DNA from: Pseudomonadales bacterium | GTDB lineage: Bacteria > Pseudomonadota > Gammaproteobacteria > Pseudomonadales > DSM-25080 | Assembly: GCA_040119265.1 (NCBI GenBank) | Contig: JBEDTZ010000011.1 | Location: forward strand, 86,587 to 110,586 | DNA length: 24,000 bases | Direction: 5' to 3' | Shown: positions 3,332 through 22,953 of the stretch, in pieces | How the letters are laid out: each line of letters opens with the position of its first letter | Numbering within the stretch: the stretch's first letter is position 1 | Position numbers and translations under genes: made by a program | Notes under the pieces: generated by a model | What the model was told of the DNA's origin: nothing | Database searches by the model: none | What the model saw: the letters and a program-made list of their open reading frames with translations, nothing else

Positions 3332-3979
3332 ATGATTTCAGCTAACCTGTCACCTCAGCTTCTTCCCAGTGAACATCTAGACGCTGTTGCCACCCTGTGT
3401 CCGTGCATACGCTACACAAAAGGTGAGGTCATCCACGCGCGGAACGACGAAAAGCCGGGCTTCTCAATTATCACTCGAGGGAACGTGAAGGTGGGTAACT
3501 ATGACACGCAGGGCAACTACCTGTTAACTCAGGTTTTAGGGGAGCTAGAGATTTTCGGCGAAATCACCCTGTTCACCCATTACGCCCGAAGTCATACGGT
3601 TGAGGCGCTTTCGGATTGTGAGATTATTCAAGTTAGCCGTGAAAACTATGAGCGCTACGCCGTTCAATCACCCTCTATTAAAGATGTGATGCTAAGCATG
3701 CTGGCGGAGAAGTTACGCACCTGTGTGGATTTAATGGATGACCTACGCCATCTCACGGTTACTCAGCGCCTTGCCAAATTGCTGCTAAATTTCGCCGCGG
3801 CCAAAGATGCCTCACATGTGAAACTGCGCCAAAGTGATCTGGCCGATCATCTAGGCCTGACGGTACTTACTGTTCACCGAGCGCTAAAGCGACTGGCCAG
3901 TGAAGGGCTCATCGAGCTGAAATATGGTGGTATAGAAGTCGTCAATGCCTCAGAACTAGCGCGCTTTGCGCAGCGCTAG
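3332..3979 (+). CDS. Crp/Fnr-family transcriptional regulator
   Basis: 215 aa. The N-terminal half resembles a cNMP-binding beta-roll (GEVIHARNDEKPGFSIITRGNVKV...FGEITLF). The C-terminal HTH is RQSDLADHLGLTVLTVHRALKRLASEGLI. It is divergent from the hydroxylase gene. Confidence 0.8.
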   Translation: MISANLSPQLLPSEHLDAVATLCPCIRYTKGEVIHARNDEKPGFSIITRGNVKVGNYDTQGNYLLTQVLGELEIFGEITLFTHYARSHTVEALSDCEIIQVSRENYERYAVQSPSIKDVMLSMLAEKLRTCVDLMDDLRHLTVTQRLAKLLLNFAAAKDASHVKLRQSDLADHLGLTVLTVHRALKRLASEGLIELKYGGIEVVNASELARFAQR

Positions 3980-4072
3980 TGCCGAGTCATTCGCAGAGAT
4001 CAACCGTAGCATAAGCGCGTTACACATCAGCTCTTAACCCTTACGGTTTCTAGTTCTTAAAGTTTACAGCCG

Positions 4073-5173
4073 CTAGCTATTAAACTGGTAGAGACTAACT
4101 TGGCTATTCACCTGCCCCTCAAGGCGAACTGAACATTCCCCCCACGTACTTGGAATGGTAAAAGCGCCCTGCCCCTGATAGTCGTAGCGTTTGTATTTGC
4201 CACTACAGCGAAGTTCGAAAGCTGATATCTCACCAGACTCAACCGCAAACTCAAAGACCGGACGGGAAAGTCGATAAGACCATGTTCCTCGTTCACTGAG
4301 GTCACCCTTAGCGATAAGGTACTCCTGTTCAGCGAGTCGCAATTCAAGGGTATCTGCGAGTTCAAGCAACGAACTTAGCCCCTCCTCGTTCCTCAACTCC
4401 CCGGGAATTTTCTCCGCAAGCTCCGCGGCATCAAGATACTGTTGGCTATCCAGCATAATTGCGAACGCTCGCTGAAATAGGATAGTTGTGTTCTCCACGC
4501 TCAATCGGTCTGGCCCCCAATCGTTTGCTCCCCAACTGATTGCCCGCTTATATTCCGAAAGCGCCGAAATACTATCGCCTTGCTGCTCGAAATTAAGGCC
4601 ACTCAGCAGTCGATAGTTCGCTTCCTCATAGAAATTAGTGAGCTCCATTTCTTCAAGCTGGCTAACGAACTCCGAAAAGGCGTCGAAATTTTCCGCTTTA
4701 TAGGCTTCAACCGCGTCGTTACTGATGCTCACAAAACGCGACGACCCGCCCTGAGATGAATCCCCAAACATAAAGGTGAACATATTACTATTGTCACAGG
4801 ATTCAATAGGCTCCCCGTTGAGCATCGCCGGCTCATACTTTCGCTTTAATGCCGCTTTAAGTGCTTCGCGTTCGAAATAGGAGCTACCACTGGAATCCTC
4901 GATCACAGCATGAGCCACGTTGCCCTCGGTATCGATGACATAACTCACTGTCGCCCAGCCTTCCCGGCCTCGGCGCAGCTCCCTACGTGGGTACTGGGGT
5001 GCTACAGGACGAAGGATTTGCGGTTCAATAAATTCGCTGACCGAGCGCGCGACCTCAACGGGTGCCAACGTGTCCTGAGACGCCTCAACAGCGGGTACAG
5101 TTTGACTCGAAGAGGTTCCATCGACATTACCGGGAGCCGCCACAGCGGCTGCCATCACAAGTGTTGCAAGCAT
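4073..5173 (-). CDS. TonB C-terminal-domain protein with a long helical-repeat (TPR-like) C-terminal extension
   Basis: 366 aa with a hydrophobic N-terminus (MLATLVMAAAVAAPG). The TonB_C signature PQYPRRELRRGREGWATVSYVIDTEGNVAHAVIEDSSGSSYFEREALKAALKRKYEP sits near the N-terminus and is followed by about 240 aa. AAGGA SD precedes the ATG. Confidence 0.7.
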   Translation of the reverse strand: MLATLVMAAAVAAPGNVDGTSSSQTVPAVEASQDTLAPVEVARSVSEFIEPQILRPVAPQYPRRELRRGREGWATVSYVIDTEGNVAHAVIEDSSGSSYFEREALKAALKRKYEPAMLNGEPIESCDNSNMFTFMFGDSSQGGSSRFVSISNDAVEAYKAENFDAFSEFVSQLEEMELTNFYEEANYRLLSGLNFEQQGDSISALSEYKRAISWGANDWGPDRLSVENTTILFQRAFAIMLDSQQYLDAAELAEKIPGELRNEEGLSSLLELADTLELRLAEQEYLIAKGDLSERGTWSYRLSRPVFEFAVESGEISAFELRCSGKYKRYDYQGQGAFTIPSTWGECSVRLEGQVNSQVSLYQFNS

Positions 5174-5280
5174 GTTAAAAGTCCTTTTTATCTACTCTCG
5201 CCCTATCTGACGAGTATTTAGTTAGCCCTAAATATTATCAAGTACCCAATCCGAGGAACAGGCGCGAATGTTGTCGAATC

Positions 5281-6744
5281 TCACAGTCCGCTAGACTGAA
5301 TTAGATGCAGCTGTGTCTGCCGACCCGATAGAAACTCAATGTCTTTACCGTCAAAAAACGCATCCTCTTCCAACATAATACGGATGACCTGGCCGTCCCA
5401 CTCGGGTATTTCAGCACTCACATTAAGCTCAATGGAATAGGCGGTATTGGGATAGATTGGATAATCCCCGGCTATCGGCACCCCACCCTGAGAATCCCAC
5501 ATGCCAATCGTAGGGCCTGCAGCGTGACCATGCAGCCCAAGTGGATGAGTGTAAATGCTAGGCACTAAGCCCTCAGCCTTGGCAGTCGCCAACGAGGATG
5601 CCAAGAGTTCATTACCCGTCACCCCCACCGCAAAGCCAGACATCAGAATATCCTGTAAACGATTGCCCTGCGCCAGGGCATTTTGCAGGCCTACTGGTGC
5701 GGACTGTTCGCCTTCCTTCAGCACATAGGCGTGCTGTTGCTGATCGGTATTAAGGCGCAGATACACTACGCCGAAGTCTACGTGCAACAGATCGCCGGGC
5801 TGTACCACATTCTCTGCAACGCCATTACTAAAGGTTTCGATCTGGTCGAATTCGGCACCATCGTTACGCTGAAGCGACACGGATGGATGAAACCAATTGC
5901 CTAGATTAAGTGCCCCCGATTGCTCGCGTAACCACCAGGCAATATCGTCGGTAGTGGTTACCCCGGGCGTAACCACTGCATTCGAAAAGGCCGTGGCAAT
6001 GAGTTCATGACCTAAGCCCACCAGCGATTGAAAGATCTCGACTTCACTGGCACTGCGGGTCTCTAACCACCCCAAGGCTAGTGGCTGTGCCGAGACAAGC
6101 TTGTCGCGCTGAGTGGGCGTTAACGCCTGACTAAACTGTTCGTATTCACTGGCACTCATTCCGTCTGCCAGCGCGAAGTGAGCATCCTTGTTAATCCCAA
6201 TGGCGCGGGGATTCTTACTGGTAATAACGGCGGCTAAAGCGGCCCACTGATCAGGCTGCTCTTCCTTGTTCCACGCTTGCTCGAATATATTACCTACGCC
6301 ATAACGAGACACCGCCAATGCTTCAATCGCGGCGCCATTGCCGGGGTTATACACCACCAACATAGTGTGCCTTCTGGCCGACATCCAATCGGATGGCAAC
6401 AGAGTTTTCAGCACCGGATCCTCATTGTACTCGCGCGACATAATGACCCACAGATCAATCCCTGCTCGCTCCATCACTACCGGCATGACAGTCGCAAAGC
6501 GCTCAGCTAACACCGCATCAATGATCTCCGCACGTTCGCGCAAGGTAGGTAACTGTTCAACGGTGAACGCCATGGGGGCTGTGGCGCGATGGGAGCTCGT
6601 CACTTCAGTCTGAGCCAAAACGGTTGCAGTACTCACACTGGATACCAACAGAGCCGCGGCCAACAACGTTGAAGTAGCGCGTTGTACCGAAGCAATTAAC
6701 GGCCTTGCAGCTGCTACTAACGAAGGAGATAACATTACTTTCAT
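5281..6744 (-). CDS. M24-family metallopeptidase (Xaa-Pro aminopeptidase-like), probably periplasmic
   Basis: The C-terminal pita-bread fold blocks are present: DFGVVY...THPLGLHGHAAGPTIG...SIELN...MLEED (metal-ligand D/H/E pattern). The N-terminus MKVMLSPSLVAAARPL...ATVLAQTE resembles a signal peptide. The start is uncertain: the track gives 6786, and I prefer the ATG at 6744. Confidence 0.75.
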   Translation of the reverse strand: MKVMLSPSLVAAARPLIASVQRATSTLLAAALLVSSVSTATVLAQTEVTSSHRATAPMAFTVEQLPTLRERAEIIDAVLAERFATVMPVVMERAGIDLWVIMSREYNEDPVLKTLLPSDWMSARRHTMLVVYNPGNGAAIEALAVSRYGVGNIFEQAWNKEEQPDQWAALAAVITSKNPRAIGINKDAHFALADGMSASEYEQFSQALTPTQRDKLVSAQPLALGWLETRSASEVEIFQSLVGLGHELIATAFSNAVVTPGVTTTDDIAWWLREQSGALNLGNWFHPSVSLQRNDGAEFDQIETFSNGVAENVVQPGDLLHVDFGVVYLRLNTDQQQHAYVLKEGEQSAPVGLQNALAQGNRLQDILMSGFAVGVTGNELLASSLATAKAEGLVPSIYTHPLGLHGHAAGPTIGMWDSQGGVPIAGDYPIYPNTAYSIELNVSAEIPEWDGQVIRIMLEEDAFFDGKDIEFLSGRQTQLHLIQSSGL

Positions 6745-6868
6745 AGGATAGACACTCGCAAACTTTGATAGTGGTGGTAGCCGCATAAATGGGCATCAAG
6801 CCAAGCTAATACAAAAAGACTACCACAGGTTGGTGACCAAGCAGCAATACTGAATAGGAAGTAAAAGG

Positions 6869-7583: not shown

Positions 7584-7658
7584 TGATACATCCTCGTTTT
7601 ACATTGGGGGAGAGCTCGAAAACTCAGTAATGTTCCCGCTTTTCGTGTCTGGCATTAT

Positions 7659-7710
7659 TTACATTATGTCAGCATAACCTTACATGTAAAGTTATCTTTA
7701 CATAATGTAA
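7659..7710. promoter_or_regulatory. Three TTACAT/ATGTAA palindromic operator-like sites upstream of the membrane-protein/XRE operon
   Basis: TTACATTATGT (7659-7669), the perfect palindrome TTACATGTAA (7680-7689) and ACATAATGTAA (7700-7710). Sites 1 and 3 are reverse complements of each other, and centre spacing is ~21 bp. They lie 76-127 nt upstream of the ATG at 7583. Confidence 0.5.
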
Positions 7711-7838
7711 TGAATTTATTACTAAGTGCTGGATGTCGTCGGGGATGACAGTAACTATTCTACAACGAAGTATACAAGGCTATAGTGACTCTAAGCCTCA
7801 GAGCCACAGCCTTCAAACCCCCTGCTAACGTTGAGCTG

Positions 7839-11023: not shown

Positions 11024-11075
11024 TTACCACTTTGGGCGCATCAAGTTGCCCACCTAAATACCCTTTAAGGGAAAA

Positions 11076-11105
11076 CAAAATGCCCTCTTAGCGAGGGCAT
11101 TTTTG
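11076..11105 (+). terminator. Bidirectional rho-independent terminator after the M16 peptidase gene; also the first part of the left direct repeat
   Basis: The sequence is AAAA-ATGCCCTC-ttagc-GAGGGCAT-TTTT: an 8-bp GC-rich stem flanked by an A-tract and a T-tract, beginning 53 nt after the stop codon. Confidence 0.8.
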
Positions 11106-11196
11106 CAACTCCTTTTTGAGTCAACCCAGACTGTCTTCGCCACCTTGGGGGGACTATGAAGACTGTCTGTGCCGCCGTTGTTAAATGATGCAGCGC
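11078..11196. repeat. Left copy of the island-flanking direct repeat
   Basis: Manual alignment to 18313-18449 gives about 105 identical positions out of 119. Shared blocks include AAATGCCCTCTTAGCGAGGGCATTTTT, AACTCCTTTTTG, GACTGTCTTCGCCA, CTTGGGGGGACTATGAAGACTGTC and GCCGCCG. Confidence 0.85.
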
Positions 11197-11228
11197 TGCA
11201 ACAAAACATTTTCTGACGACTAAACACT

Positions 11229-11291
11229 TTGAGACGGTTGAGACGGTTGAGACGGTTGAGACGGTTGAGACGGTTGAGACGGTTGAGACGG
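11229..11291. repeat. Perfect tandem repeat (TTGAGACGG) x7, 9-bp unit
   Basis: Read directly from the sequence: seven identical head-to-tail 9-mers. The repeat is intergenic, 33 nt inside the left direct repeat. The 91-aa minus ORF across it (RLNRLNRLN...) is an artefact of the repeat. Confidence 0.95.
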
Positions 11292-11427
11292 ATAGTTCTA
11301 CACCAAAAAAGCAGCTGAAAGCTAGGCATTATCTTTCATAGCATTTTTAGATATAGAATCTATAGCTAAAAAGTCTATTTATTGACCCCAAAAATATTTG
11401 ACTAGCCAGTCACAATACATAAGATAG

Positions 11428-11443
11428 TGTGAACTAGATCACA
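11428..11443. promoter_or_regulatory. Consensus CRP (cAMP receptor protein) binding site upstream of the tna leader
   Basis: TGTGA-ACTAGA-TCACA matches the TGTGA-N6-TCACA consensus perfectly, with AT-rich flanks (ATAG...TTTT). Its centre is ~96 nt upstream of the leader ORF ATG. E. coli tna is CRP-dependent. Confidence 0.7.
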
Positions 11444-11531
11444 TTTTGTTTGCTTTTGATTTAGTTTTTTGATTTTTGATAAGTTAGTTTTTTATAGGTA
11501 ACAAGAGTTTAAATCTTTAATAGGAGGAGAG

Positions 11532-11657
11532 ATGTTAGTAACAAATCAAGACCATTTTACCTCTACTCCTTCCCCTTGTAGCTGGTTCAGATGGTTTACA
11601 GCTGATCCTCTTATTAAAGACTCTGTTAAATCCAGCGTTATCACTCCTTCTCTCTAA
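11532..11657 (+). CDS. Candidate tna operon leader peptide (41 codons, TnaC-like by position and W-F-x-x-D motif)
   Basis: The strong SD TAGGAGGAGAG is immediately upstream of the ATG. Translation: MLVTNQDHFTSTPSPCSWFRWFTADPLIKDSVKSSVITPSL*. It lies between the CRP box and tnaA, 122 nt upstream of the tnaA ATG. W21-F-T-A-D25 parallels E. coli TnaC W12-F-N-I-D16. It is too short to appear in the ORF track. Confidence 0.5.
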   Translation: MLVTNQDHFTSTPSPCSWFRWFTADPLIKDSVKSSVITPSL

Positions 11658-11779
11658 CTCCATTCTTAATTGAATTTGGATTTGGAGGCCAGTTGCCGCA
11701 ATTCCCATACTAAAACTACTCGCGTCTTCTGGCCATTTTGAACCTGTGAATAATGGTCCGCCAATAGTGGCGTGCTTGG

Positions 11780-13189
11780 ATGCTTATTATGAAAAATTTA
11801 CCCCAGCCCTATAAAATCAAGTCAATAGAACCCATTCAGCTACTCTCTTTCGAGCAACGCTTCAATGCGTTAGCTAAAGTTGGCTTTAATCCCTTTTTGC
11901 TACGTAGTGATGATGTCTACATCGATCTTCTTACGGATTCTGGCACCGGAGCCATGAGCCAAGAGCAATGGTCTGCCCTAATGCTGGGAGACGAGTCCTA
12001 TGCAGGCAGTCGGAGCTACTACAAGCTAGAGCAAGCTGTGCATTACATATTCAATTATCAATACACCATACCTACCCATCAGGGCAGAGGCGCTGAACAG
12101 ATCCTGTTTCCTGCTCTTATCAACAAGATGAGAAATGAGAAAGGCGGCGACAAGGCTGTATTCATCTCTAACTACCACTTTGACACTACGGCGGCGCATG
12201 TTGAGCTAAACGATGCCAAAGCGATCAATGTAGTATGCGAACAAGCTCATCAGCTTAGTGATCCCTATGATTGGAAGGGAAATTTCGATATCCCTTTGCT
12301 ACTAAAAACTATTAATACCCAAGGTCCTGAAAATATTGCTGCCATCATCATCACGATTACCTGCAATAGTATGGGTGGGCAGCCTGTTTCCATGGAGAAC
12401 ATGAGGTCCGTTTATGAAATTGCACGCGAGTTTGACATCCCGGTGGTGATGGACGCCGCGCGTTTCGCGGAAAATGCTTTCTTCATTCGTCAACGAGATC
12501 CGTTCTACCAAACGACTAGCATCGATGAAATCGTCTACCATATGTTTGAGTATGCCGATATCTTTACCATGTCCGCTAAAAAGGATGCGATGGTCAATAT
12601 TGGTGGACTTTGTTGTTTCAAAGATAACGAAGCATTGTATCGTGAAGTTCAAACCCTTTGCATCCCTATGGAGGGCTTCGCCACCTATGGCGGACTAGCT
12701 GGGCGCGATATGGAAGCGCTGGCAGTAGGTTTGTATGAATCTATCAATTTGGAGTATCTCACTGCTCGTATTGAGCAGGTAGAGCGATTAAATAATAAGC
12801 TCGCAGAGGCGGGCATCCCCGTTCAGACTCCTAGCGGCGGTCATGCGGTATTTATCGACGCCAAAGCACTCCTTCCTGACATCCCTGCTGATCAGTTCCC
12901 TGGCCATGCCTTGGCCATTGCTTTGTACCTTGAAGCAGGAATTAGATCGGCTGAAATCGGCTCACTCCTTCTAGGGAGAGACCCTCAAACGGGGATCCAA
13001 AAGACCTCTCCAACGGAGCTTTTGCGGCTAGCAATTCCTCGACGTACCTATACTAATGAGCACATTGATTATGTCGCCGAAAGCGTCATTAAAGTTGCGC
13101 AGCGTAAACAGGAAATTCCTGGCTATAGATTTACCTACGAGCCTCAAGTCTTACGTCACTTTCTCGCCGAGTTTGAAGCAGTCGCTTAA
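11780..13189 (+). CDS. tnaA: Tryptophanase (tryptophan indole-lyase), PLP-dependent beta-eliminating lyase
   Basis: Colinear from recall with E. coli TnaA along its whole length: [77 protein letters not shown]-lysine block [21 protein letters not shown] and YEPQVLRHF. These blocks fit TnaA better than tyrosine phenol-lyase (GNMYFTTT, MSGKKDCLV). The start could instead be the ATG at 11789. Confidence 0.92.
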
Positions 13190-13272
13190 TTAATCCGAAG
13201 TAACAACAGTCACGCTAAAAATTTCAATAACAGAGCGTGACTGTTAATCAATTAATACTGCAAGGAGTTTCT

Positions 13273-14547
13273 ATGAAAGATTCAAATCTCAGCAAGCCTG
13301 ACAAGGCCGCTTCGATAATCTATGGAGCAGCTGTAATCTTCAGTACCGCCGTGGGCGTGGGGATGATGAGCCTTCCTATTGTAAGCGTGGGAATGTGGTT
13401 TAGCCTGAGTGTGGTCGTTATTATCCTGACAGCATTCTATGTTATTTCTGCTGGTAGCTTGATACTTGAAGTGAGCATGCGCTACCCCCAAGATACCGGC
13501 ATTCATACTATGGTAGATAGCCTACTTGGAAAGCGACACGCTTTCTGCAATGCATCGGTAATGCTGTTTAATGGTTATATTCTTCTTTATGCCTACCTAA
13601 CAGCGGGCAGTGAAGCCATACAATTTTACGTTGAAAAAGCCACTGAGCAGCCCCTTGGCTCAACCGCCTCAGGACTTCTATTTGCCCTAATTTTTAGCTT
13701 TATCCTCTTTCTGCGTCCACTCTCCATAAGTCGCTTTCTGAGTATCTTCATCACACTGATGATCCTGTCATTTATTTATGTTGCCTATTCGTTAGCGATA
13801 AAGATTGACCTAGAGAATTTAGTTGCTTCACAGCAGGGCCTAATTCGTCAATTTTCACTCGCACCCTATGCCGTCGTCGCCTTGCCATTTTTTGCTGCCG
13901 CATTGGGGTACCAACAAACAATTCCAATGCTAAGAAATCTCTACAACAACGATGCCACCAAGGTATTTAAAGCAATTATTTTAGGAGTCTGTGGCGTAGC
14001 CACACTGTATCTCTGTTGGCTGACCCTGACGATGGGAAATCAAACTCAAACTGAGATGATTACAAAGCTATCCTCAGGCAACAATCGCATCGAGGATTTA
14101 GTTTCAACACTAAGTCACAGTGTTGAACTCAAGGCATTAATGTTCCTCTTTGTTCAATTAGCTGTTGTCACCTCGTTTATCGGCGTAGCAAAGGGGGTTC
14201 TTGATTACCTCACCGATATTTTTGTCAATCATCTACAGCTCTCGTCAAAATATGCCAAAGTTTTGGTAATTCTGCCTCCCCTAACGATGTCGCTGTTATT
14301 CCCTTACGGCTTCCTTCTTGGAATCGGCTTCGCCGGTTTAACAGGCGCGATTTGGGGCGGCCTTTATCCGTCATTACTAGCACTAAAGATCGAACAAAAG
14401 CCACCGCTTAGAGGTATGAGCTTTAAAACCCCAGGCGGCAGATTTACCCCGTGGTTCACGCTGCTATTCAGCCTTGTGATTGTCGCAGCTATCTTACTTA
14501 GCCTCTTCGATTTACTACCGCAATATCCCGCTATAGAGGAGCAATAA
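13273..14547 (+). CDS. tnaB: Aromatic amino acid (tryptophan) permease, TnaB/Mtr/TyrP (HAAAP) family
   Basis: About 11 TM segments. Recalled similarity to E. coli TnaB includes GAAVIFSTAVGVGMMSLP, LLYAYLTAG, LAVVTSFIGVAKGVLDYLTDIF and FPYGFLLGIGFAGL. It lies directly downstream of tnaA. The ATG at 13273 follows an AAGGAG SD; the track start at 13237 is GTG. Confidence 0.85.
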   Translation: MKDSNLSKPDKAASIIYGAAVIFSTAVGVGMMSLPIVSVGMWFSLSVVVIILTAFYVISAGSLILEVSMRYPQDTGIHTMVDSLLGKRHAFCNASVMLFNGYILLYAYLTAGSEAIQFYVEKATEQPLGSTASGLLFALIFSFILFLRPLSISRFLSIFITLMILSFIYVAYSLAIKIDLENLVASQQGLIRQFSLAPYAVVALPFFAAALGYQQTIPMLRNLYNNDATKVFKAIILGVCGVATLYLCWLTLTMGNQTQTEMITKLSSGNNRIEDLVSTLSHSVELKALMFLFVQLAVVTSFIGVAKGVLDYLTDIFVNHLQLSSKYAKVLVILPPLTMSLLFPYGFLLGIGFAGLTGAIWGGLYPSLLALKIEQKPPLRGMSFKTPGGRFTPWFTLLFSLVIVAAILLSLFDLLPQYPAIEEQ

Positions 14548-14549
14548 CG

Positions 14550-15905
14550 ATGTTATTAAGCCAAACGCTTACCCTAGCTATAACAGCTTTACCTATCAAC
14601 CCTGACTGCCGCCTCTACTGCACACAAGAAGAGAACGAGTCATCAAACTATCTCTCAAGCTTAGTGAAAATAGACAGCGAAGCGAGCACCTTCCAAACCC
14701 CATCACGGGAGTTCCAGCTAGCTCTAAAATCTAGCTTGGACCAGGACGTCTGCCGAAGCTTAGCGAGGAACTTAGCAACCTGTAGCAAGTACCAGCTCGC
14801 TGGAGCAGCTCCCAAGAACACCGAGTTTTCAGCAAGTACTGGCTATCAATCAGAAATTACAGAAACTGGTCTTGGCTGGCAATCTGCACAAATTGACTAC
14901 TTTAGCTATACCACGGTCGCTAGCAATACTCGCTCTGGATCGAGTGATTTTTCGTCAGGAGGGATTGCAAGGTTCTACAGCGATTACCTCATTACCGACG
15001 ACGTTAAATCACGAGAGCAGATTCGCTTCAAGGTAGAGCATCGAAACAGCTATACATCAACGAGCCCTCTCAGCTTTGTACTAACTGATATCGGCGCGGT
15101 TGGACTCATTGAGCCTCAGTTCAATGACGGAGGATTTCGTCTTACTCATTTGTACTGGGAAAAAGCTTGGAATCAAAACCGTAGTAACTTGTCCTTCGGT
15201 TTTCTAGACCCTACCAACTACGTTGACACTTACCAGTTAGGTAACCCCTGGGAAGGATTTAATAATTTTATCTTCAGTACTGGTTCAGGAACCATGACCT
15301 TGCCTGACGAGAGTACTTTTGGAGTTTCTTTAAAGCAGCTATTTTACGACAACTATTACGCTATAGCGAGTATCTCAGATGCCAATGCTGACTCCACCGA
15401 TCCATTCAGTGGCCTATTCGACGGCGGACGCGTTTTTTGGTCTATCGAAGTAGGATTGATTGAATCACCGGAAAAATTTTACACCCGCAATCTCCACTTA
15501 AGCTATTGGCGGATGGATGCAGGGACTCGCCACGGAAGTGAAGTTAGCAAAGGGGTCAATGTCTCATGGGTACATCAGTTGCAAGATTGGATGCCATTTT
15601 TCCGAGCAGGCTTAAGTTCAGGCGATGCCAGCCTCCTATCCTCCAATGTAACTATAGGCTCGGGCTATCTCGGATTCTCAGACCCAAGCTCTCTACTTGG
15701 TGTGGCCTTAGGTTGGGGTAAGCCTAATGAGTCCCTGTTCGGAGCACAGCAAGAGCATCAGTTTACAACTGAGGTCTTTTATAGAACCGAACTGTTCAAC
15801 CACTTGACGCTTACGCCCAATATCCAATACCTAAAGTCGCTACCCCTCAATCCTGAACATAACGAGTCATGGGTAGCGGGGCTGCGCCTAAAATTTGCCT
15901 TTTAG
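14550..15905 (+). CDS. Outer-membrane beta-barrel porin, OprB (carbohydrate-selective porin)-like
   Basis: It starts 2 nt after the tnaB stop, with a GAGGAG SD 8 nt upstream. The sequence alternates amphipathic and aromatic-rich stretches. The C-terminal block FTTEVFYRTELFNHLTLTPNIQYLKSLPLNPEHNESWVAGLRLKFAF resembles the OprB-family terminus (E..Y......P..QY...P......G.R....F) and ends in Phe. The N-terminus MLLSQTLTLAITALPINPDC is not a canonical signal peptide. Confidence 0.55.
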   Translation: MLLSQTLTLAITALPINPDCRLYCTQEENESSNYLSSLVKIDSEASTFQTPSREFQLALKSSLDQDVCRSLARNLATCSKYQLAGAAPKNTEFSASTGYQSEITETGLGWQSAQIDYFSYTTVASNTRSGSSDFSSGGIARFYSDYLITDDVKSREQIRFKVEHRNSYTSTSPLSFVLTDIGAVGLIEPQFNDGGFRLTHLYWEKAWNQNRSNLSFGFLDPTNYVDTYQLGNPWEGFNNFIFSTGSGTMTLPDESTFGVSLKQLFYDNYYAIASISDANADSTDPFSGLFDGGRVFWSIEVGLIESPEKFYTRNLHLSYWRMDAGTRHGSEVSKGVNVSWVHQLQDWMPFFRAGLSSGDASLLSSNVTIGSGYLGFSDPSSLLGVALGWGKPNESLFGAQQEHQFTTEVFYRTELFNHLTLTPNIQYLKSLPLNPEHNESWVAGLRLKFAF

Positions 15906-15925
15906 AGAATTTATCTGTTTTCCCA

Positions 15926-15966
15926 CGCTACTACTGAGCCTACGCAAGCGGTTATTCAGAGTAGCG
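15926..15966 (+). other. Intercistronic stem-loop between the porin gene and the ibrA-like gene
   Basis: CGCTACTACTGA (15926-15937) pairs with TCAGAGTAGCG (15956-15966) with a one-base bulge. There is no T-tract, so it is not a clear intrinsic terminator. It may be a processing or stability element, or a weak boundary. Confidence 0.3.
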
Positions 15967-16020
15967 GAGGGAGATACTCCACGCGGGGCAAATCGAATAA
16001 ACACTGAGGGATCTGGTCTA

Positions 16021-17238
16021 ATGAAGAGGCACTTAACTATAGACGTTGAGCAAGCGGCTAGGGAACGAATTCGAATTCTATTTGATGAATTCGAGAGTAT
16101 CTACGTATCTTTCTCCGGAGGGAAGGACTCAGGTGTTCTGCTCAACCTAGTCATTGAAGAAGCACGCAAGCGTGACAGGCTCCCCGTGGACGTACTCATT
16201 ATTGATCTTGAAGCGCAGTTTGAACATACCATAGCCTACATTTTAGAGATGGTTAATCGGCCTGATATAAATGCTTTTTGGGTTTGCCTACCTCTAAGCC
16301 TGCGCAATGCAGTATCACAATTTCAGGTGAAATGGTTCTGTTGGGATCCATCAGCAATAGATGGATGGGTACGATCAAAACCCCGCCATCCTTCAGTTAT
16401 CGACAATCCTTCCAGCTTTCCCTTTTTCTACTTTGGAATGGAATTTGAAACCTTTGTTGCTGAATTCGGCAAATGGTATAGCGCGAAACGTGGCGTTCCA
16501 TCTGTGTGTCTAGTCGGTATTCGTGCAGATGAGTCGATAAATCGATACAACGCTATTAAACATCCCTCAAAGAGCAAATTACACCAACACGGCTGGACGA
16601 CCAAAGAATGCGAAAATTTCTATAAAGCCTATCCCATCTATGACTGGCATGTGACCGACATCTGGATTGCTAACGGTCGCTTCAAATGGTCTTACAACCG
16701 CATCTACGACTTAATGCACCAGGCAGGTCTAACACTTTCTCAACAGCGAGTTTGTCAGCCTTTTGGCGACGATCAACGCAAGGGTTTGTGGCTCTATCAA
16801 ATTCTGGAAGCATCAACCTGGCAGAAGCTGGTATCTAGGGTTGCTGGCGCCAACTTCGGTAGTCGATATAGCAAAAACCAAAGCCATATTTTAGGCCACT
16901 ATCGCTTTGATCTACCGGAGGGGCATACCTACCGTTCCTATAGCAAATACCTACTTGAGAGCATGCCGCCACACTTGGCGCAGCACTATCGAAAACGAAT
17001 ATTTAAGTTTCTAAATTGGTGGCGCAAGAACGGTAGAAAGAATGGCTTTACTCGGATTCCTGACTTTGCGGAGAGGAAATTAGAAGCGAAGAAAAAAGCT
17101 CCTAGTTGGCGACGAATCTGTAAGGTTCTCATCAAAAACGACTACTGGTGTAAAGGTTTGTCGTTTAGCCAAACCAAGCGACTCACCACTCATTACCTTG
17201 AGCTATATGAAAGCTACCTTCGGAGGGAAAAGCTATGA
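16021..17238 (+). CDS. ibrA: IbrA-like PP-loop ATP pyrophosphatase (PAPS reductase family N-domain plus a large C-terminal domain of unknown function)
   Basis: The PP-loop motif is SFSGGKDSGVLLNL near the N-terminus. Overall length (~405 aa) and the Trp/Lys/Arg-rich C-terminal half (NWWRKNGRKNGF...PSWRRICKVLIKNDYWCKGLSF) fit the IbrA/DUF3440-type family as I recall it. The ATG at 16021 is preferred over the track's upstream non-ATG start at 15895, which would overlap the porin gene. Confidence 0.75.
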   Translation: MKRHLTIDVEQAARERIRILFDEFESIYVSFSGGKDSGVLLNLVIEEARKRDRLPVDVLIIDLEAQFEHTIAYILEMVNRPDINAFWVCLPLSLRNAVSQFQVKWFCWDPSAIDGWVRSKPRHPSVIDNPSSFPFFYFGMEFETFVAEFGKWYSAKRGVPSVCLVGIRADESINRYNAIKHPSKSKLHQHGWTTKECENFYKAYPIYDWHVTDIWIANGRFKWSYNRIYDLMHQAGLTLSQQRVCQPFGDDQRKGLWLYQILEASTWQKLVSRVAGANFGSRYSKNQSHILGHYRFDLPEGHTYRSYSKYLLESMPPHLAQHYRKRIFKFLNWWRKNGRKNGFTRIPDFAERKLEAKKKAPSWRRICKVLIKNDYWCKGLSFSQTKRLTTHYLELYESYLRREKL

Positions 17239-17861
17239 CACTCAAAAGTGAAATTGTTGATTTATCTGGAAAGCTGTTGCATTCGTCACCAGAATTATCC
17301 TTAAAGGATCGAGTAGAAATTTTCAATCTGCTCTCCGTCTTGGCGGCTAGTATCGTGGAGTTTAAACACCCAGCGCTTAACGTCCAACTAGTTCGCACAA
17401 ACACCTTAGAAGATAACGATTACAACCCAAACGTTGTCTCCCCACCAGAATATCGTCTACTTACCCACTCAATCAGGGAGGACGGGATCACAATGCCGCT
17501 TGTGGTTGCAAAAAGCCAAGGACAAAAGCCCTATGTAGTAGTTGATGGCTACCACCGAGCACAAATTATTAAGTTTGATAAGGAGGTGAATAAATCCCTT
17601 GCCGACCACATACCGGTAGTTATTTTAGCTAAGCCGTTAGACAAGCGAATATCTTCTTCGGTTAGACACAACATGGCTAGAGGTTCACACCAAGTCAAAC
17701 TCACTGCAAAACTGATCCTTCGCCTAAAGGAGCTGAATTGGACGAACGATGAAATAGGCAAAGAACTTGGAATGGACAGCGATGAAGTCCTGAGAATGCA
17801 ACAGATCACTGGGCTTGCTGAAGCCTTTAAAAATGACGATTTTTCCACAGCGTGGGACTAA
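17235..17861 (+). CDS. ibrB: IbrB-like ParB/Srx-fold (ParB N-terminal nuclease-like) protein with C-terminal HTH
   Basis: The ParB-N pattern is YNPNVVSPPEYRLLTHSIREDGITMPLVV...YVVVDGYHRAQII (DGxHR box). The C-terminal HTH-like segment is WTNDEIGKELGMDSDEVLRMQQI. An ATGA overlap with ibrA and a GGAGGGA SD indicate translational coupling. Confidence 0.8.
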   Translation: MTLKSEIVDLSGKLLHSSPELSLKDRVEIFNLLSVLAASIVEFKHPALNVQLVRTNTLEDNDYNPNVVSPPEYRLLTHSIREDGITMPLVVAKSQGQKPYVVVDGYHRAQIIKFDKEVNKSLADHIPVVILAKPLDKRISSSVRHNMARGSHQVKLTAKLILRLKELNWTNDEIGKELGMDSDEVLRMQQITGLAEAFKNDDFSTAWD

Positions 17862-17879
17862 CTTTAGACGGAGAAAATA

Positions 17880-18236
17880 ATGAATATTTCTAGACATTAC
17901 ACTAGTGAAAGAATGAGTAAAATTGTAGTGTACAACAACTTGATTTATCTGTGTGGTCAAGTAGCGAGTGACGCCACGTCTGGGATCGCCGTACAAACAG
18001 AGAGCATGTTAGGCAAGGTAGATGATCTTCTAGAAGAGGCTAACAGTGATAAATACCATATCCTTAGCGCCACGGTTTATCTCAGCGACATGGATAATTT
18101 TAATGTTATGAACGAAGTCTGGGAGTGGTGGCTGCCGTTAGGGCACGCACCTGCCAGAGCTTGCGTTCAAGCACCCATGGCGCGCCCCGAACTGTTAGTA
18201 GAAGTTTCCGTCATTGCGGCGGTTAAAGAAAGCTAG
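17880..18236 (+). CDS. RidA/YjgF/YER057c-family protein (YoaB-like subgroup)
   Basis: 118 aa. [13 protein letters not shown]...[60 protein letters not shown] is colinear with my recollection of E. coli YoaB (..IHNNTLYYTG...ILDATIFLADKNDFAAMNKAWDAWV.AGHAPVRCTVQA......KVEIKIVAAV). A GGAG SD lies 6 nt upstream, and the gene starts 18 nt after ibrB. Confidence 0.85.
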
Positions 18237-18312
18237 CTACTAAGTTCAAGTAGGCCCGCACGTTCCAACACAGACGGCCCCTGGTACCTGTGCTGAAGTG
18301 AATTGTGTTTGG

Positions 18313-18340
18313 AAATGCCCTCTTAGCGAGGGCATTTTTA
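18313..18340 (+). terminator. Bidirectional terminator hairpin (right-repeat copy), serving the island operon and the convergent DJ-1-like gene
   Basis: ATGCCCTC-ttagc-GAGGGCAT followed by TTTTTA. The stem-loop is identical to the one at 11080-11100. Confidence 0.75.
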
Positions 18341-18449
18341 TAACTCCTTTTTGTTTTTTTGGGGAGGAGCGGCCCCGACTGTCTTCGCCATCTTGGGGGG
18401 ACTATGAAGACTGTCCTGTCTATGCCGCCGCTGTTGAATGGTGAAGCGC
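18313..18449. repeat. Right copy of the island-flanking direct repeat
   Basis: It aligns to 11078-11196. An extra ~13 bp block (TTTTTTTGGGGAGGAGCGG, 19 bp) replaces AGTCAA (6 bp) of the left copy. The copy ends 2 nt before the stop codon (18452) of the convergent DJ-1-like gene. Confidence 0.85.
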
Positions 18450-18451
18450 GA

Positions 18452-19525
18452 TTATTCTGCTTTGGTCGCTTCGGCCAATAGCATTAACTTCACGCTAGCA
18501 ACCAGATCAAAGTCCATTGCCGCAACAATAGCGTGCATCACAATGAGCAGAGATTTGTATTCATAGTCATGGGCCTCAATGTAATCCTTTGCTGCGGAGT
18601 AACCCTGCGCTCTGAAGACACCCATTAAATCAACGGCGCGCTCTTCGCGAGTAATTGGGCGCTCAACTGGCGTCACACCCAGTTGCTCCACCGTCTTCTC
18701 CGCTAGTGTCCAGACTGACCACGGATTTTGTCCCGTAATGACATTACCGTCAGCGACCACCATGTTGAGGTAGTCGGAGGTGGACGCAAAGGTTGCACCC
18801 TGCTCCTTCAGACCATCTTCCAATAGAAAACCAAACACCTGCTCGGCTTCAGGAATCAGCAGTAGCTCTTCGCTATTGGTGAAGGAGGTGACTGACTTAC
18901 CCGCCAAGAGATTAGTCCCGTCCGGCAGTGACACATTCAATAGCGCCGCAGGGCCATGACATACCGCCGCAATCACTCCGCCCTGGCTGTACATGTCGGC
19001 GGCGAAAGATTTGATGGCTGAGTTGTCGACAAAGTCGAACATCGTCCCTTTGCCACCCACGAAGTACACGGCGTCATAATCGGCAGGGTTCAGGTCATCG
19101 ATGACCAAGGTATTCTGTAGCTGAGCTTGAATCTCAGGGTGATTAAGGAAGGCGTAGCTATAGTGCTCCATATCATCTTTGTCCAAGATCATAGGTGCAT
19201 CGCCGCCCTGCGTACTGGCGATATCTACCTCAAAGCCGTTGACGCTGAATACCCAGTAAGCTCTTGCCAGTTCCGTGAGCTCATAGCCGGTGCGCTTACC
19301 GCTGGTGCCCATTTCATCCACACTGGTTACTACCGCCAAGATACGGCCATTGGTTGCGCCGGTAGCGGCAGCTAGGTAGGGAATATCCTGCGCTTGGCTA
19401 TCCTCAAAGTTTTCCAAACCGGTGTCTGGGACGAAGCTTAAAAGCCAGAGAATAGGTGCCGCAATGAGGACGGCTAATACACCCAACGTTATAGCACTGC
19501 GAATAGCGATTTTTTTAATGTTCAT
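18452..19525 (-). CDS. DJ-1/PfpI/Hsp31-like (class I glutamine amidotransferase-like fold) protein, membrane-anchored, with a C-terminal helical extension
   Basis: The nucleophile-elbow block VIAAVCHGPAALLN matches the HchA/DJ-1 CHGPAA pattern. The N-terminal TM anchor is IAIRSAITLGVLAVLIAAPILWLL. The ATG at 19525 follows a GGAGAT SD; the track start at 19540 is TTG. Confidence 0.8.
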   Translation of the reverse strand: MNIKKIAIRSAITLGVLAVLIAAPILWLLSFVPDTGLENFEDSQAQDIPYLAAATGATNGRILAVVTSVDEMGTSGKRTGYELTELARAYWVFSVNGFEVDIASTQGGDAPMILDKDDMEHYSYAFLNHPEIQAQLQNTLVIDDLNPADYDAVYFVGGKGTMFDFVDNSAIKSFAADMYSQGGVIAAVCHGPAALLNVSLPDGTNLLAGKSVTSFTNSEELLLIPEAEQVFGFLLEDGLKEQGATFASTSDYLNMVVADGNVITGQNPWSVWTLAEKTVEQLGVTPVERPITREERAVDLMGVFRAQGYSAAKDYIEAHDYEYKSLLIVMHAIVAAMDFDLVASVKLMLLAEATKAE

Positions 19526-22349: not shown

Positions 22350-22748
22350 CTAACTGGCCGCTACAGATTTCAAACCCAAATATTTAACAAACGGTTCGAA
22401 ATCTCGGTCAGTAAAGAGTAATGGAATACCCTCGTTTATACAGTAGGACGCGATGACGATGTCATTCGTCTTGCGTACCGTAATACCTTTAGTCCGAAGA
22501 AAACGGAAATGCTCGGAAGCTCTAAGAGCCTGAAGCGTACCCAGCATTTCATGTTGCTCGAGAACCAATAGGTTAGCTTTCGCCAATTTATAGTCGTAGC
22601 TCTTTCGAAAACCTTGGAGTATCTCCAATAGTATTAAGTCTCCCATCAAAACCACATCGTCGTTCAGAGCCTCATCGAGCATCTCAGTTTCTAGAGAGTG
22701 AATACCATTGAGATAGTCAATCCACACACTGGAATCTGCCAGTATCAT
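22350..22748 (-). CDS. vapC: VapC-family PIN-domain toxin (type II TA)
   Basis: 132 aa. The N-terminal MILADSSVWIDYL carries the first PIN acidic residue, followed by the later conserved E (LLEILQG) and D (TDRDFEPF). An ATGA overlap links it to the upstream antitoxin gene. Confidence 0.85.
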   Translation of the reverse strand: MILADSSVWIDYLNGIHSLETEMLDEALNDDVVLMGDLILLEILQGFRKSYDYKLAKANLLVLEQHEMLGTLQALRASEHFRFLRTKGITVRKTNDIVIASYCINEGIPLLFTDRDFEPFVKYLGLKSVAAS

Positions 22749-22939
22749 GAGGCCCCGCGCATTTCATCGAGGTTACCCTCCCAGGTTAACTTTCCTCGAA
22801 GCTTACGAATGCTCTGTTGCTTTCGCTGCTGAACAATTAGTTTCAGCGCTTCTTCGACAACTTCTCGCTTAGTGCGCAGACCAGTGGCCTGCAGAGCGCT
22901 CAGCATTAAATCATCGTCAATCACTATGTTGGTACGCAT
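22745..22939 (-). CDS. vapB: VapB-family antitoxin (small DNA-binding protein)
   Basis: 64 aa. MRTNIVIDDDLMLSALQATGLRTKREVVEEALKLIV is the common VapB (DUF2191-type) N-terminus. It is translationally coupled to vapC. Confidence 0.8.
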   Translation of the reverse strand: MRTNIVIDDDLMLSALQATGLRTKREVVEEALKLIVQQRKQQSIRKLRGKLTWEGNLDEMRGAS

Positions 22940-22953
22940 ACAACCACCTCATC

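Follow-up and report, generated by a model that had tools for sequence, protein, structure and literature searches.

A tryptophanase island, very probably a recent horizontal gain, between two copies of a resident terminator spacer in one Umboniibacter lineage

The 24-kb stretch of DNA analysed here (the window, to which all coordinates refer) comes from a metagenome-assembled genome (MAG) and carries an island of six genes, headed by the tryptophanase gene tnaA, between two convergent genes that encode an M16-family zinc peptidase and a DJ-1/PfpI-family protein. The island is bracketed by two copies of a single segment in direct orientation (Table 1). The DJ-1 protein is 99% identical to that of an uncultured Umboniibacter sp. 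and 72% identical to that of Umboniibacter marinipuniceus, and by this protein the host lineage is assigned to Umboniibacter. An earlier reading of the window from its letters alone (the sequence-only reading) had described an AT-richer accessory island between direct repeats, with its genes on one strand and with no integrase, transposase or tRNA; all six genes are indeed on the plus strand. Judged by its sequence, the island is a complete tna-type unit with its own regulation, consisting of a CRP-like site and a leader open reading frame (ORF).

Table 1. Features of the island, its bracketing repeats and the two convergent genes, in window coordinates.
Feature	Position	Strand	Remarks
M16 (pitrilysin-family) zinc peptidase, 951 aa	8168-11023	+	Pfam Peptidase_M16, M16_C; orthologue adjoins DJ-1 in L002 and L010
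Spacer from M16 stop to repeat, 54 nt	11024-11077		Hypervariable; gives the hairpin its minus-strand U-tract
Left repeat copy, 119 nt	11078-11196	direct orientation	Hairpin 11080-11100, short variable segment, ~72-nt core
Island left end	11197-11291	+	Unique sequence, two degenerate 18-nt units, then 9-nt array
CRP-like site TGTGA-N6-TCACA	11428-11443	+	Upstream of the tna leader; read from sequence
TnaC-like leader ORF, 41 aa	11532-11657	+	Contains SWFRWFTADPLIK
tnaA, tryptophanase	11780-13189	+	NF009709, Pfam Beta_elim_lyase
Tryptophan/aromatic amino acid permease (TnaB/Mtr-like), 424 aa	13273-14547	+	Pfam Trp_Tyr_perm 264 bits, TIGR00837
OprB-family outer-membrane porin	14550-15905	+	Pfam OprB; same position in L008 and L017
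IbrA-like PAPS-reductase/DUF3440 protein	16021-17238	+	Pfam PAPS_reduct, DUF3440; phrog_2302 1e-90
IbrB-like ParB-N domain protein	17235-17861	+	phrog_2159 7e-54; weak Pfam ParB_N
RidA-family enamine/imine deaminase	17880-18236	+	Pfam Ribonuc_L-PSP 84 bits
Island right end, 76 nt	18237-18312	+	Unique sequence touching the right-copy hairpin
Right repeat copy, 137 nt	18313-18449	direct orientation	Hairpin 18315-18335; still joined to DJ-1 as 3' region and terminator
DJ-1/PfpI-family protein, 357 aa	18452-19525	-	Pfam DJ-1_PfpI

In its CRP-like site, its Trp-containing leader, tnaA and the tryptophan permease, and in the order of these elements, the island is akin to the tnaCAB operon known from Enterobacteria and Vibrionaceae; that tna operons are under catabolite control is well established. 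It goes beyond tnaCAB in carrying an OprB porin, an IbrA/IbrB-like pair and RidA, in its leader motif (WFRW[FY]TxDPx[IL]K), in being strain-specific and in having a member of the Cellvibrionales as its host. Four related loci (L008, L009, L011 and L017, see below) also have the motif W-F-[RH]-W-[FY]-T-x-D-P-x-[IL]-K upstream of tnaA; it differs from the TnaC sequence of E. coli. TnaA scored 717 bits against NF009709 (cut-off 285) and 714 bits against TIGR02617, under the 826-bit equivalog cut-off of the latter model. The IbrB-like ORF overlaps the IbrA-like ORF by 4 nt, and the cluster on L008 likewise closes with a RidA gene.

The absence of an integrase, transposase or tRNA was borne out, as no recombinase or transposase domain was detected in the six genes (Pfam, NCBIfam) or in the leader and the other ORFs of at least 70 aa on both strands (Pfam). 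The IbrB-like ParB-N protein is not a recombinase. A tRNA-Leu(CAA) called by ARAGORN at 12583-12666, inside tnaA, received no support from Rfam and is a probable false positive, and a Padloc defence system was likewise rejected, its only basis being weak DndC/BrxP-like matches for the IbrA-like protein. At the left end of the island, two degenerate 18-nt units grade into a perfect 9-nt tandem array (TTGAGACGG, seven units at 11229-11291) that is absent from the tna relatives; its two viral matches were unrelated coding microsatellites and provide no link to a donor. The 76 nt at the right end had no match in the viral collection.

A global alignment of the left and right copies gave 105 matches, 14 mismatches and 18 gap columns, corresponding to 88% identity over aligned positions (105/119) and to 77% with gaps counted. 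The repeat pair was the sole long repeat in the window (self-BLAST E-value 1.5e-26). Both copies open with an identical hairpin, AAATGCCCTC-TTAGC-GAGGGCATTTTT, whose G+C-rich stem of 8 bp has an A-run on one side and a T-run on the other; by these features it is bidirectional intrinsic-terminator-like, and a minus-strand terminator-like site was also called in the left copy. Two indels separate the copies: a T/G homopolymer block differs by 13 nt net, equally readable as 19 nt replacing 6, and the right copy has a tandem duplication of the 5 nt CTGTC. Measured from the ORF ends, the left copy begins 54 nt after the end of the M16 ORF (11023), the right copy finishes 2 nt short of the DJ-1 stop codon (18452-18454), and 7116 bp lie between the copies. 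The sequence-only reading had given the same repeat coordinates, the same three distances, about 105 identities, the shared hairpin and the 19-for-6 block, and all of these were reproduced.

Within the repeat, the small plus-strand ORF MKTVCAAVVK is not conserved between the copies and was not accepted as a gene, and a minus-strand ORF running through the homopolymer block, which differs between the copies, was also ruled out. Terminal inverted repeats were looked for at the island ends and none were found; the 10-bp palindrome (GCAGCGCTGC) that lies across the left junction has no right-hand counterpart.

Read on the minus strand, the repeat unit is the sequence that directly follows the DJ-1 stop codon, in the order ~72-nt core, hypervariable C-run/A-run and terminator. 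The core can fold into a long imperfect hairpin with a C-rich loop and a GGCGGC/GCCGCC closing helix, and fold z-scores for the two copies on both strands were between -2.0 and -4.4. It is identical in two related strains, L002 (GCA_947497555.1) and L010 (a metagenome contig from the European Nucleotide Archive, ENA), despite a divergence of ~19% between them at 4-fold sites, and in the neighbouring DNA, most of it coding, no more than 5.6% of 72-nt windows were equally conserved. This identity suggests that the core may be under constraint; the 3' half of the DJ-1 gene is also locally conserved. In the outgroup U. marinipuniceus, the core is absent, and DJ-1 is followed by a homologous terminator with a C-run/A-run before it, the stem of which (ATGCCCAC...GTGGGCAT) represents a compensatory change. 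Across the four repeat copies (two in the window and one each in L002 and L010) no compensatory pair was observed, the sequences being too alike, and Rfam produced no gathering-level match over the window, with only noise (E > 0.2) over both copies at permissive thresholds. A small structured RNA or REP-like (repetitive extragenic palindromic) locus had been proposed as the target of insertion; a structured 3' untranslated region (3' UTR) and terminator locus fits the first part of that proposal, and the REP-like part found no support.

A promoter-like sequence, TTGGCC-16-AATAAT, is located on the minus strand inside the 3' end of DJ-1 (18478-18451), matching at 9/12 positions where ~0.4 such sites are expected by chance. 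It would start a terminator-ended RNA of ~130 nt nearly at the edge of the repeat unit.

In both L002 and L010, the M16 and DJ-1 genes converge across one spacer copy of 127-130 nt, and this single copy aligns to both copies in the window. A search for related genomes with an empty site, as the sequence-only reading had envisaged, thus yielded two independent cases, and its suggestion that an ancestral convergent-gene spacer is now duplicated agrees with the single copy found in each. The strain tree, built from three flank genes on the DJ-1 side, is ((window, L010), L002), with divergences of 2.3% of nucleotides and 7.2% of 4-fold sites between the window and L010, and of ~6% and ~19-20%, respectively, for window-L002 and L002-L010. 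U. marinipuniceus, at ~30% of nucleotides and ~61% of 4-fold sites, carries neither the island nor the repeat core and has a TonB-C gene between DJ-1 and M16. From the tree, the empty sites and the outgroup, one gain on the terminal branch of the window is therefore the most parsimonious history, as compared with two losses.

The composition of the island points in the same direction as the sequence-only reading had seen by eye: pooled GC is 45.6% in the island and 50.9% in the flanks, and GC at third codon positions (GC3) is 0.445-0.480 in all island genes as compared with 0.526-0.606 in all flank genes of at least 600 nt, the two ranges not overlapping. In support of the sequence-only reading, we consider it very probable that the island was gained recently by horizontal transfer and that it is bracketed by a duplicated resident spacer; the gain postdates the split from the closest sampled relative and belongs to one Umboniibacter lineage.

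We compared the two window copies with the copies in L002 and L010. Between the two empty-site copies, the hairpin edge and the homopolymer block are the sole places of difference. Private to the left copy are 10 substitutions and a 13-nt deletion, most of them within or beside that block. Over aligned positions the right copy agrees with the empty-site copies at 93-94%, and its private changes are 5 substitutions, the CTGTC duplication and a 2-nt indel. Neither window copy is identifiable as the ancestral one, because both carry private changes. Column 127 of the alignment, the only parsimony-informative site, groups the window copies together against both empty-site copies, and this pattern, drawn from four sequences only, fits two copies that would have descended from one resident allele and later drifted. 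In both copies, the amount of change somewhat exceeds the ~3.6% expected per branch under neutrality. The adjoining 54-nt spacer is more variable still, with roughly 8-13 differences between any two of the three strains (window, L010 and L002), well above the 4-fold-site rate when the window is compared with L010.

The position of the copies bears on how each transcription unit would end. The M16 gene and the tna operon would each end at a hairpin followed by a good plus-strand T-run, and DJ-1 would keep its 3' region, with its minus-strand U-tract cut from UUUUGUUUU to UUUCC because the original distal flank remained with the left copy. With the spacer duplicated, each of the three units (the M16 gene, the incoming operon and DJ-1) may thus still have a hairpin copy at its end. 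The direct repeats would also make the island deletable.

The island proteins were singletons at 90% clustering among ~15 billion proteins. The nearest relatives of TnaA (74-80% identical) were found on unnamed contigs, followed by Vibrio mediterranei, V. chaetopteri and Shewanella, and those of the IbrA-like protein in Photobacterium and Vibrio (70-73%); across the island, identities to relatives in Vibrio, Photobacterium and Shewanella were 55-77%. Matches of tnaA in giant viruses were set aside as irrelevant to the origin of the cargo. Several of the related clusters are on mobile DNA. In V. chaetopteri (L011), tnaA, the permease, IbrA and IbrB are encoded on a 241-kb replicon, and two MOBF conjugative plasmids of Vibrio (L018 and L019) carry the porin, IbrA, IbrB and an aromatic transporter, with tnaA nearby in both and RidA nearby in L018 only. 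In Photobacterium frigidiphilum (L017), a prophage carries tnaA, the permease, the porin, a Big_2 gene, IbrA and IbrB just upstream of the HNH, terS, terL, portal and capsid genes, and the L008 contig carries tnaA, the permease, the porin, other genes and RidA. The IbrA/IbrB-like pair matches the phage families phrog_2302 and phrog_2159, and the IbrA-like protein is present in 732 plasmid records. Since relatives of the cargo occur on conjugative plasmids and in a prophage of Vibrionaceae, a plasmid or phage is the likely vehicle.

The IbrA/IbrB-like pair is repeatedly found with tnaA, the OprB porin and a Trp transporter (window, L011, L017, L018 and L019), and with RidA in the window and L018, which hints at a link of the pair to tryptophan/indole metabolism that is functional rather than a matter of hitch-hiking. 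Elsewhere, in L016 (GCA_003358065.1, 10001-13470), the pair lies directly beside a P4-type tyrosine integrase in a neighbourhood that is otherwise metabolic, suggesting a small integrative island.

The closest relative of the island with full synteny, the cluster in the HK97-like prophage of P. frigidiphilum (GCA_050338655.1), provides a parallel for its bracketing. This 8.5-kb tna cluster shares with the island the order tnaA, permease, porin, IbrA, IbrB at 55-77% amino acid identity, and differs in its extra Big_2 gene and in having a glyoxalase where the island has RidA. It is bracketed by a direct repeat of 747 bp with 81% identity (3608-4345 and 12844-13588), which, unlike that of the island, contains an HNH gene and the 5' end of a terS-like gene: the left copy holds the HNH gene and the first ~45 codons only of the terS-like ORF, and on the side of the right copy the HNH, terS-like and terL genes are intact. 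The repeat starts within ~4 nt of a terminator hairpin (GCCCAGC-TAAAC-GCTGGGC-TTTTTT), and no recombinase is encoded between its copies. Common to both loci is therefore cargo placed inside a long imperfect duplication of the local target that opens at a terminator hairpin, with the target intact on one side.

Among the routes by which this arrangement could have arisen, we tentatively favour a Campbell-type integration, which we regard as plausible rather than probable. The island would have entered as a circular DNA molecule carrying one copy of the spacer, a reading to which we attach the same reserve, and a single reciprocal crossover inside the spacer, performed by the homologous recombination machinery of the host, would have integrated it. 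Such a crossover would necessarily leave the homologous segment as direct repeats, and RecA-dependent excision between them would restore the one-copy empty site and the circle. We favour this route because it gives exactly the observed product, requires no enzyme of the element, and fits both the plasmid and phage pedigree of the cargo and the L017 parallel. The hallmark of a single crossover, one segment duplicated directly at both junctions and present once in the empty site, is what we observe. Duplications of 119/137 bp are a workable RecA substrate and, to our knowledge, far exceed any target duplication made by a transposase or an integrase. The sequence-only reading had made the same point for transposons, and transposition, including by a composite insertion sequence (IS), is excluded: the island has no transposase and no terminal inverted repeats, and its duplication is not of the 2-14 bp kind. 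The nearest laboratory counterpart is the Campbell integration of suicide plasmids, in which an insert likewise stands between direct duplicates, the empty site has one copy, and the event is reversible and needs no recombinase of the element; the island differs in being natural, in the use of a ~130-bp intergenic segment, and in having no vector backbone and no known source of the circle's spacer copy.

Several observations weigh against Campbell-type integration. We saw no circular form, vehicle backbone or donor, and a circle bearing the recipient's spacer presupposes a prior association of island and locus, so that the model would account for how the island spread more readily than for how it first arose. 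A crossover between diverged alleles should leave a clean two-block chimera; no such pattern is seen among the four sequences, in which changes are mostly private, and the copies differ by 12% plus indels, somewhat above the ~7% neutral divergence accumulated since the L010 split. Bracketed cases number only two (the window and L017); no uninterrupted relative of the L017 phage region was found in the phage collection, and the tna loci of L008, L009, L011, L018 and L019 have no repeat bracket.

A different possibility, which we consider rather unlikely, is that the island is an element mobilised in trans, akin to a cis-mobilisable element (CIME) or a satellite, and that the two copies are the attL and attR sites of a recombinase encoded elsewhere, on a helper integrative and conjugative element (ICE), a phage or the host. 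The crossover would then fall within the 27-bp hairpin segment, over which all copies are identical, and the island would have brought an extended look-alike of the target that preserved the 3' end of DJ-1. Direct repeats that flank the island 2 nt past a stop codon, with no recombinase inside, are in keeping with this, and the hairpin, the longest perfectly identical stretch, resembles a core-type site in its 11-nt inverted arms and 5-nt centre. An IbrAB pair stands beside a P4-type tyrosine integrase in L016, and phages and plasmids often carry the pair. CIMEs are decayed remnants of ICEs or of integrative and mobilisable elements (IMEs) that by definition retain attL and attR and have no integration or transfer genes (PMC5704250). 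The island is CIME-like as recombinase-less cargo between direct repeats at a gene 3' end, potentially mobilisable in trans, but its repeats are of 119/137 bp and 88% identity instead of a short identical core, and similarity over 120-137 bp is atypical of att sites. No integration, conjugation or phage structural relic lies between the repeats, where non-coding sequence amounts to only 583 nt and 76 nt, and our scans recovered no cognate ICE or IME, integrase or second att-like copy. The identity of the hairpin is equally well explained by its function as a terminator, as the compensatory change in U. marinipuniceus illustrates. Of the decayed or trans-mobilised island proposed by the sequence-only reading, the trans-mobilised half is thus a possible though rather unlikely reading, and the decayed half has against it the lack of relic ORFs and pseudogenes between the repeats.

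Elements that supply or borrow an integrase resemble the island in part. The e14 element and phage 21 integrate in the icd gene of E. coli and carry a replacement 3' end. As in these elements, the end of a transcription unit is imperfectly duplicated at its 3' side over ~100-170 bp and the target stays functional, but icd-type elements encode their own integrase, whereas the island does not and its duplicated part is untranslated. Compared with integrase-encoding islands, prophages and ICEs in general, the island has the repeats and the one-copy empty site and does not have a recombinase of its own. Integrative mobile elements exploiting Xer recombination (IMEX), such as the CTX phage and the gonococcal genetic island, use the host XerCD at dif; they too are flanked by direct repeats and encode no recombinase, but the repeats of the island are not dif-like. 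The best match to dif in either copy was 13-14/28, and shuffled windows reached 16-20, so that integration at dif by Xer was rejected.

We judge it similarly doubtful that the duplication was made in situ, by capture of foreign DNA where the structured spacer had broken or a fork had stalled in it. A template switch back upstream at the hairpin base, or fill-in of staggered breaks, would have recopied the ~130-bp spacer on both sides, and no homology donor would be necessary. Such an origin accords with the signs that both copies descend from the resident allele (column 127 is common to them, and their divergence from the empty-site allele is similar outside the homopolymer block) and with the start of the duplication, which lies at most 3 nt from the 5' base of the hairpin here and ~4 nt from it in L017. 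The junctions, however, bear no microhomology or filler signature, and the katG deletion described below, the other strain-specific indel in the window, is also without such a signature. The L017 repeats, at 81% identity and with both HNH ORFs intact, are better accounted for by two related phage alleles, and we know of no citable precedent for a target duplication of more than 100 bp by an in-situ route in gammaproteobacteria.

Two further proposals appear less likely again. One is that a preformed repeat-island-repeat allele from an unsampled conspecific was imported as linear DNA by a double crossover in the flanks, which we consider improbable. Allelic exchange between close strains is common, and both copies and the 54-nt spacer exceed the 2.3% background of differences from L010 (5, 4 and 8 differences per 72-nt window, respectively, as compared with a typical 0-3). 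Divergence of the adjacent coding sequence is nonetheless at background, with 3/156 nt differing on the side of M16 and 2-3 per 72 nt in the DJ-1 3' end; there is no visible sign of an imported tract, the ~15 billion proteins include no other carrier of the island, and the question of how the repeats arose would only be shifted to another strain. The other, which we offer as a speculation with little expectation of its being right, is that the tryptophan/indole cargo (tnaA, permease, porin, IbrA and IbrB) spreads recurrently by a recombinase-independent route that acts at the bases of intrinsic-terminator hairpins and duplicates a long local target (130 bp in Umboniibacter and 747 bp in the Photobacterium prophage), the conserved ~72-nt core of the DJ-1 3' UTR serving as a landing pad and being an uncharacterised regulatory RNA.

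That the island was ancestral to the clade of the window, L010 and L002 and was lost twice through recombination between the repeats is very unlikely. The repeats would permit deletion, and the empty sites hold exactly one copy, but two losses would be required in place of one gain, the outgroup U. marinipuniceus is without the island, the island GC3 is un-ameliorated, and the empty-site copies lack the left-hand private states of the left copy and the right-hand private states of the right copy that a deletion chimera would be expected to retain.

Even less probable is a dispersed repeat family of the REP or MITE (miniature inverted-repeat transposable element) kind, with the island inserted at, or moved between, its members, although the unit is structured, as its fold z-scores indicate, and starts with a palindromic hairpin. 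In a profile search with all filters off, the unit was found only at the M16/DJ-1 junction in ~37 kb of the source strain (on which its copy number in that strain rests), 21 kb of L002, and L010, and the same search of U. marinipuniceus recovered no repeat copy. A 20-nt stretch of the core had one chance match in 596 Gb of representative genomes (about one is expected), a collection in which neither the source MAG nor the L002 genome was matched, both being absent or masked there, and one chance match in viral contigs; its matches in L005 and L007 reflect a chance resemblance to ribosome-binding sites and start codons. In the sequence covered, the REP/MITE reading accordingly found no support, and neither did the REP-like locus and the recombination between dispersed repeats that the sequence-only reading had entertained; the high-copy family without any empty site that would have spoken against its island did not appear, with no other copy in the data examined and two empty sites found instead.

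The hairpin 23-mer had no match in viral contigs and a single match in metagenomes, at L006, where the part in common (28-34 nt) is the hairpin only. At positions 490-523 of this AT-rich, otherwise unrelated contig (Ga0182028_1468909), 34 nt are 97% identical to the right-copy hairpin and its T-run, a likeness that is probably due to convergence among terminators.

An assembly artefact, in the form of a chimeric join in the MAG, is the least credible explanation: in its favour are the MAG origin of the sequence and the 9-nt array, within which both of the source strain's Logan contigs end, but that array, at 63 nt, is shorter than typical reads, each junction is covered separately by one contig (10173, running from M16 through the left copy and island-specific sequence into the array, and 4316, running from the array through the entire island, across the right copy and into DJ-1, and extending 6 kb further; both from run SRR13090250, which is not established as the MAG's own read set), and neither contig shows the empty-site arrangement.

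Other differences in gene content surround the island. At about 7974 (between 7583 and 8168), the window is without a 2.2-kb katG catalase-peroxidase gene that adjoins M16 in L002 and U. marinipuniceus. This indel is a clean deletion with no flanking repeats, and the long-repeat signature does not recur there. The TonB-C and M24 peptidase genes (4073-6786) are adjacent in the window and in L002; in U. marinipuniceus (L003), TonB-C is found between DJ-1 and M16, with M24 next to the response regulator. Gene content has therefore changed repeatedly at the DJ-1/M16 junction. The flanks also contain toxin-antitoxin pairs, a HigB-like toxin with a helix-turn-helix (HTH) protein and PIN/VapB, at 1038-1609 and 22350-22942 (the VapB end being derived from L001 coordinates), as well as a palindrome at 7654-7715 with 31-nt arms, 81% complementary and without a spacer, which lies upstream of a 133-aa gene and is conserved in L002.

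Taken as a whole, the locus holds a genomic island whose general kind is known; what is unusual is the long duplication of a terminator and 3' UTR without a recombinase. The gene-gain event is well documented and only moderately unusual, and it is a well-resolved case and not a new principle unless long duplications associated with hairpins prove to recur; if such insertion were recurrent, it would represent an undescribed mode of insulated operon insertion. The case is a clean natural gene gain, with occupied and empty sites, a known polarity and an intact insert. In it, a whole metabolic operon was placed between two convergent genes, neither of which was disturbed, with every unit insulated by a duplicated terminator. 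Should the homology-driven integration of a circle be true, it would show plasmid or phage cargo settling in the chromosomes of distant hosts while still being excisable. As far as its genes can tell, a host-associated marine lineage may thereby have gained the capacity for indole, a widespread inter-species signal.

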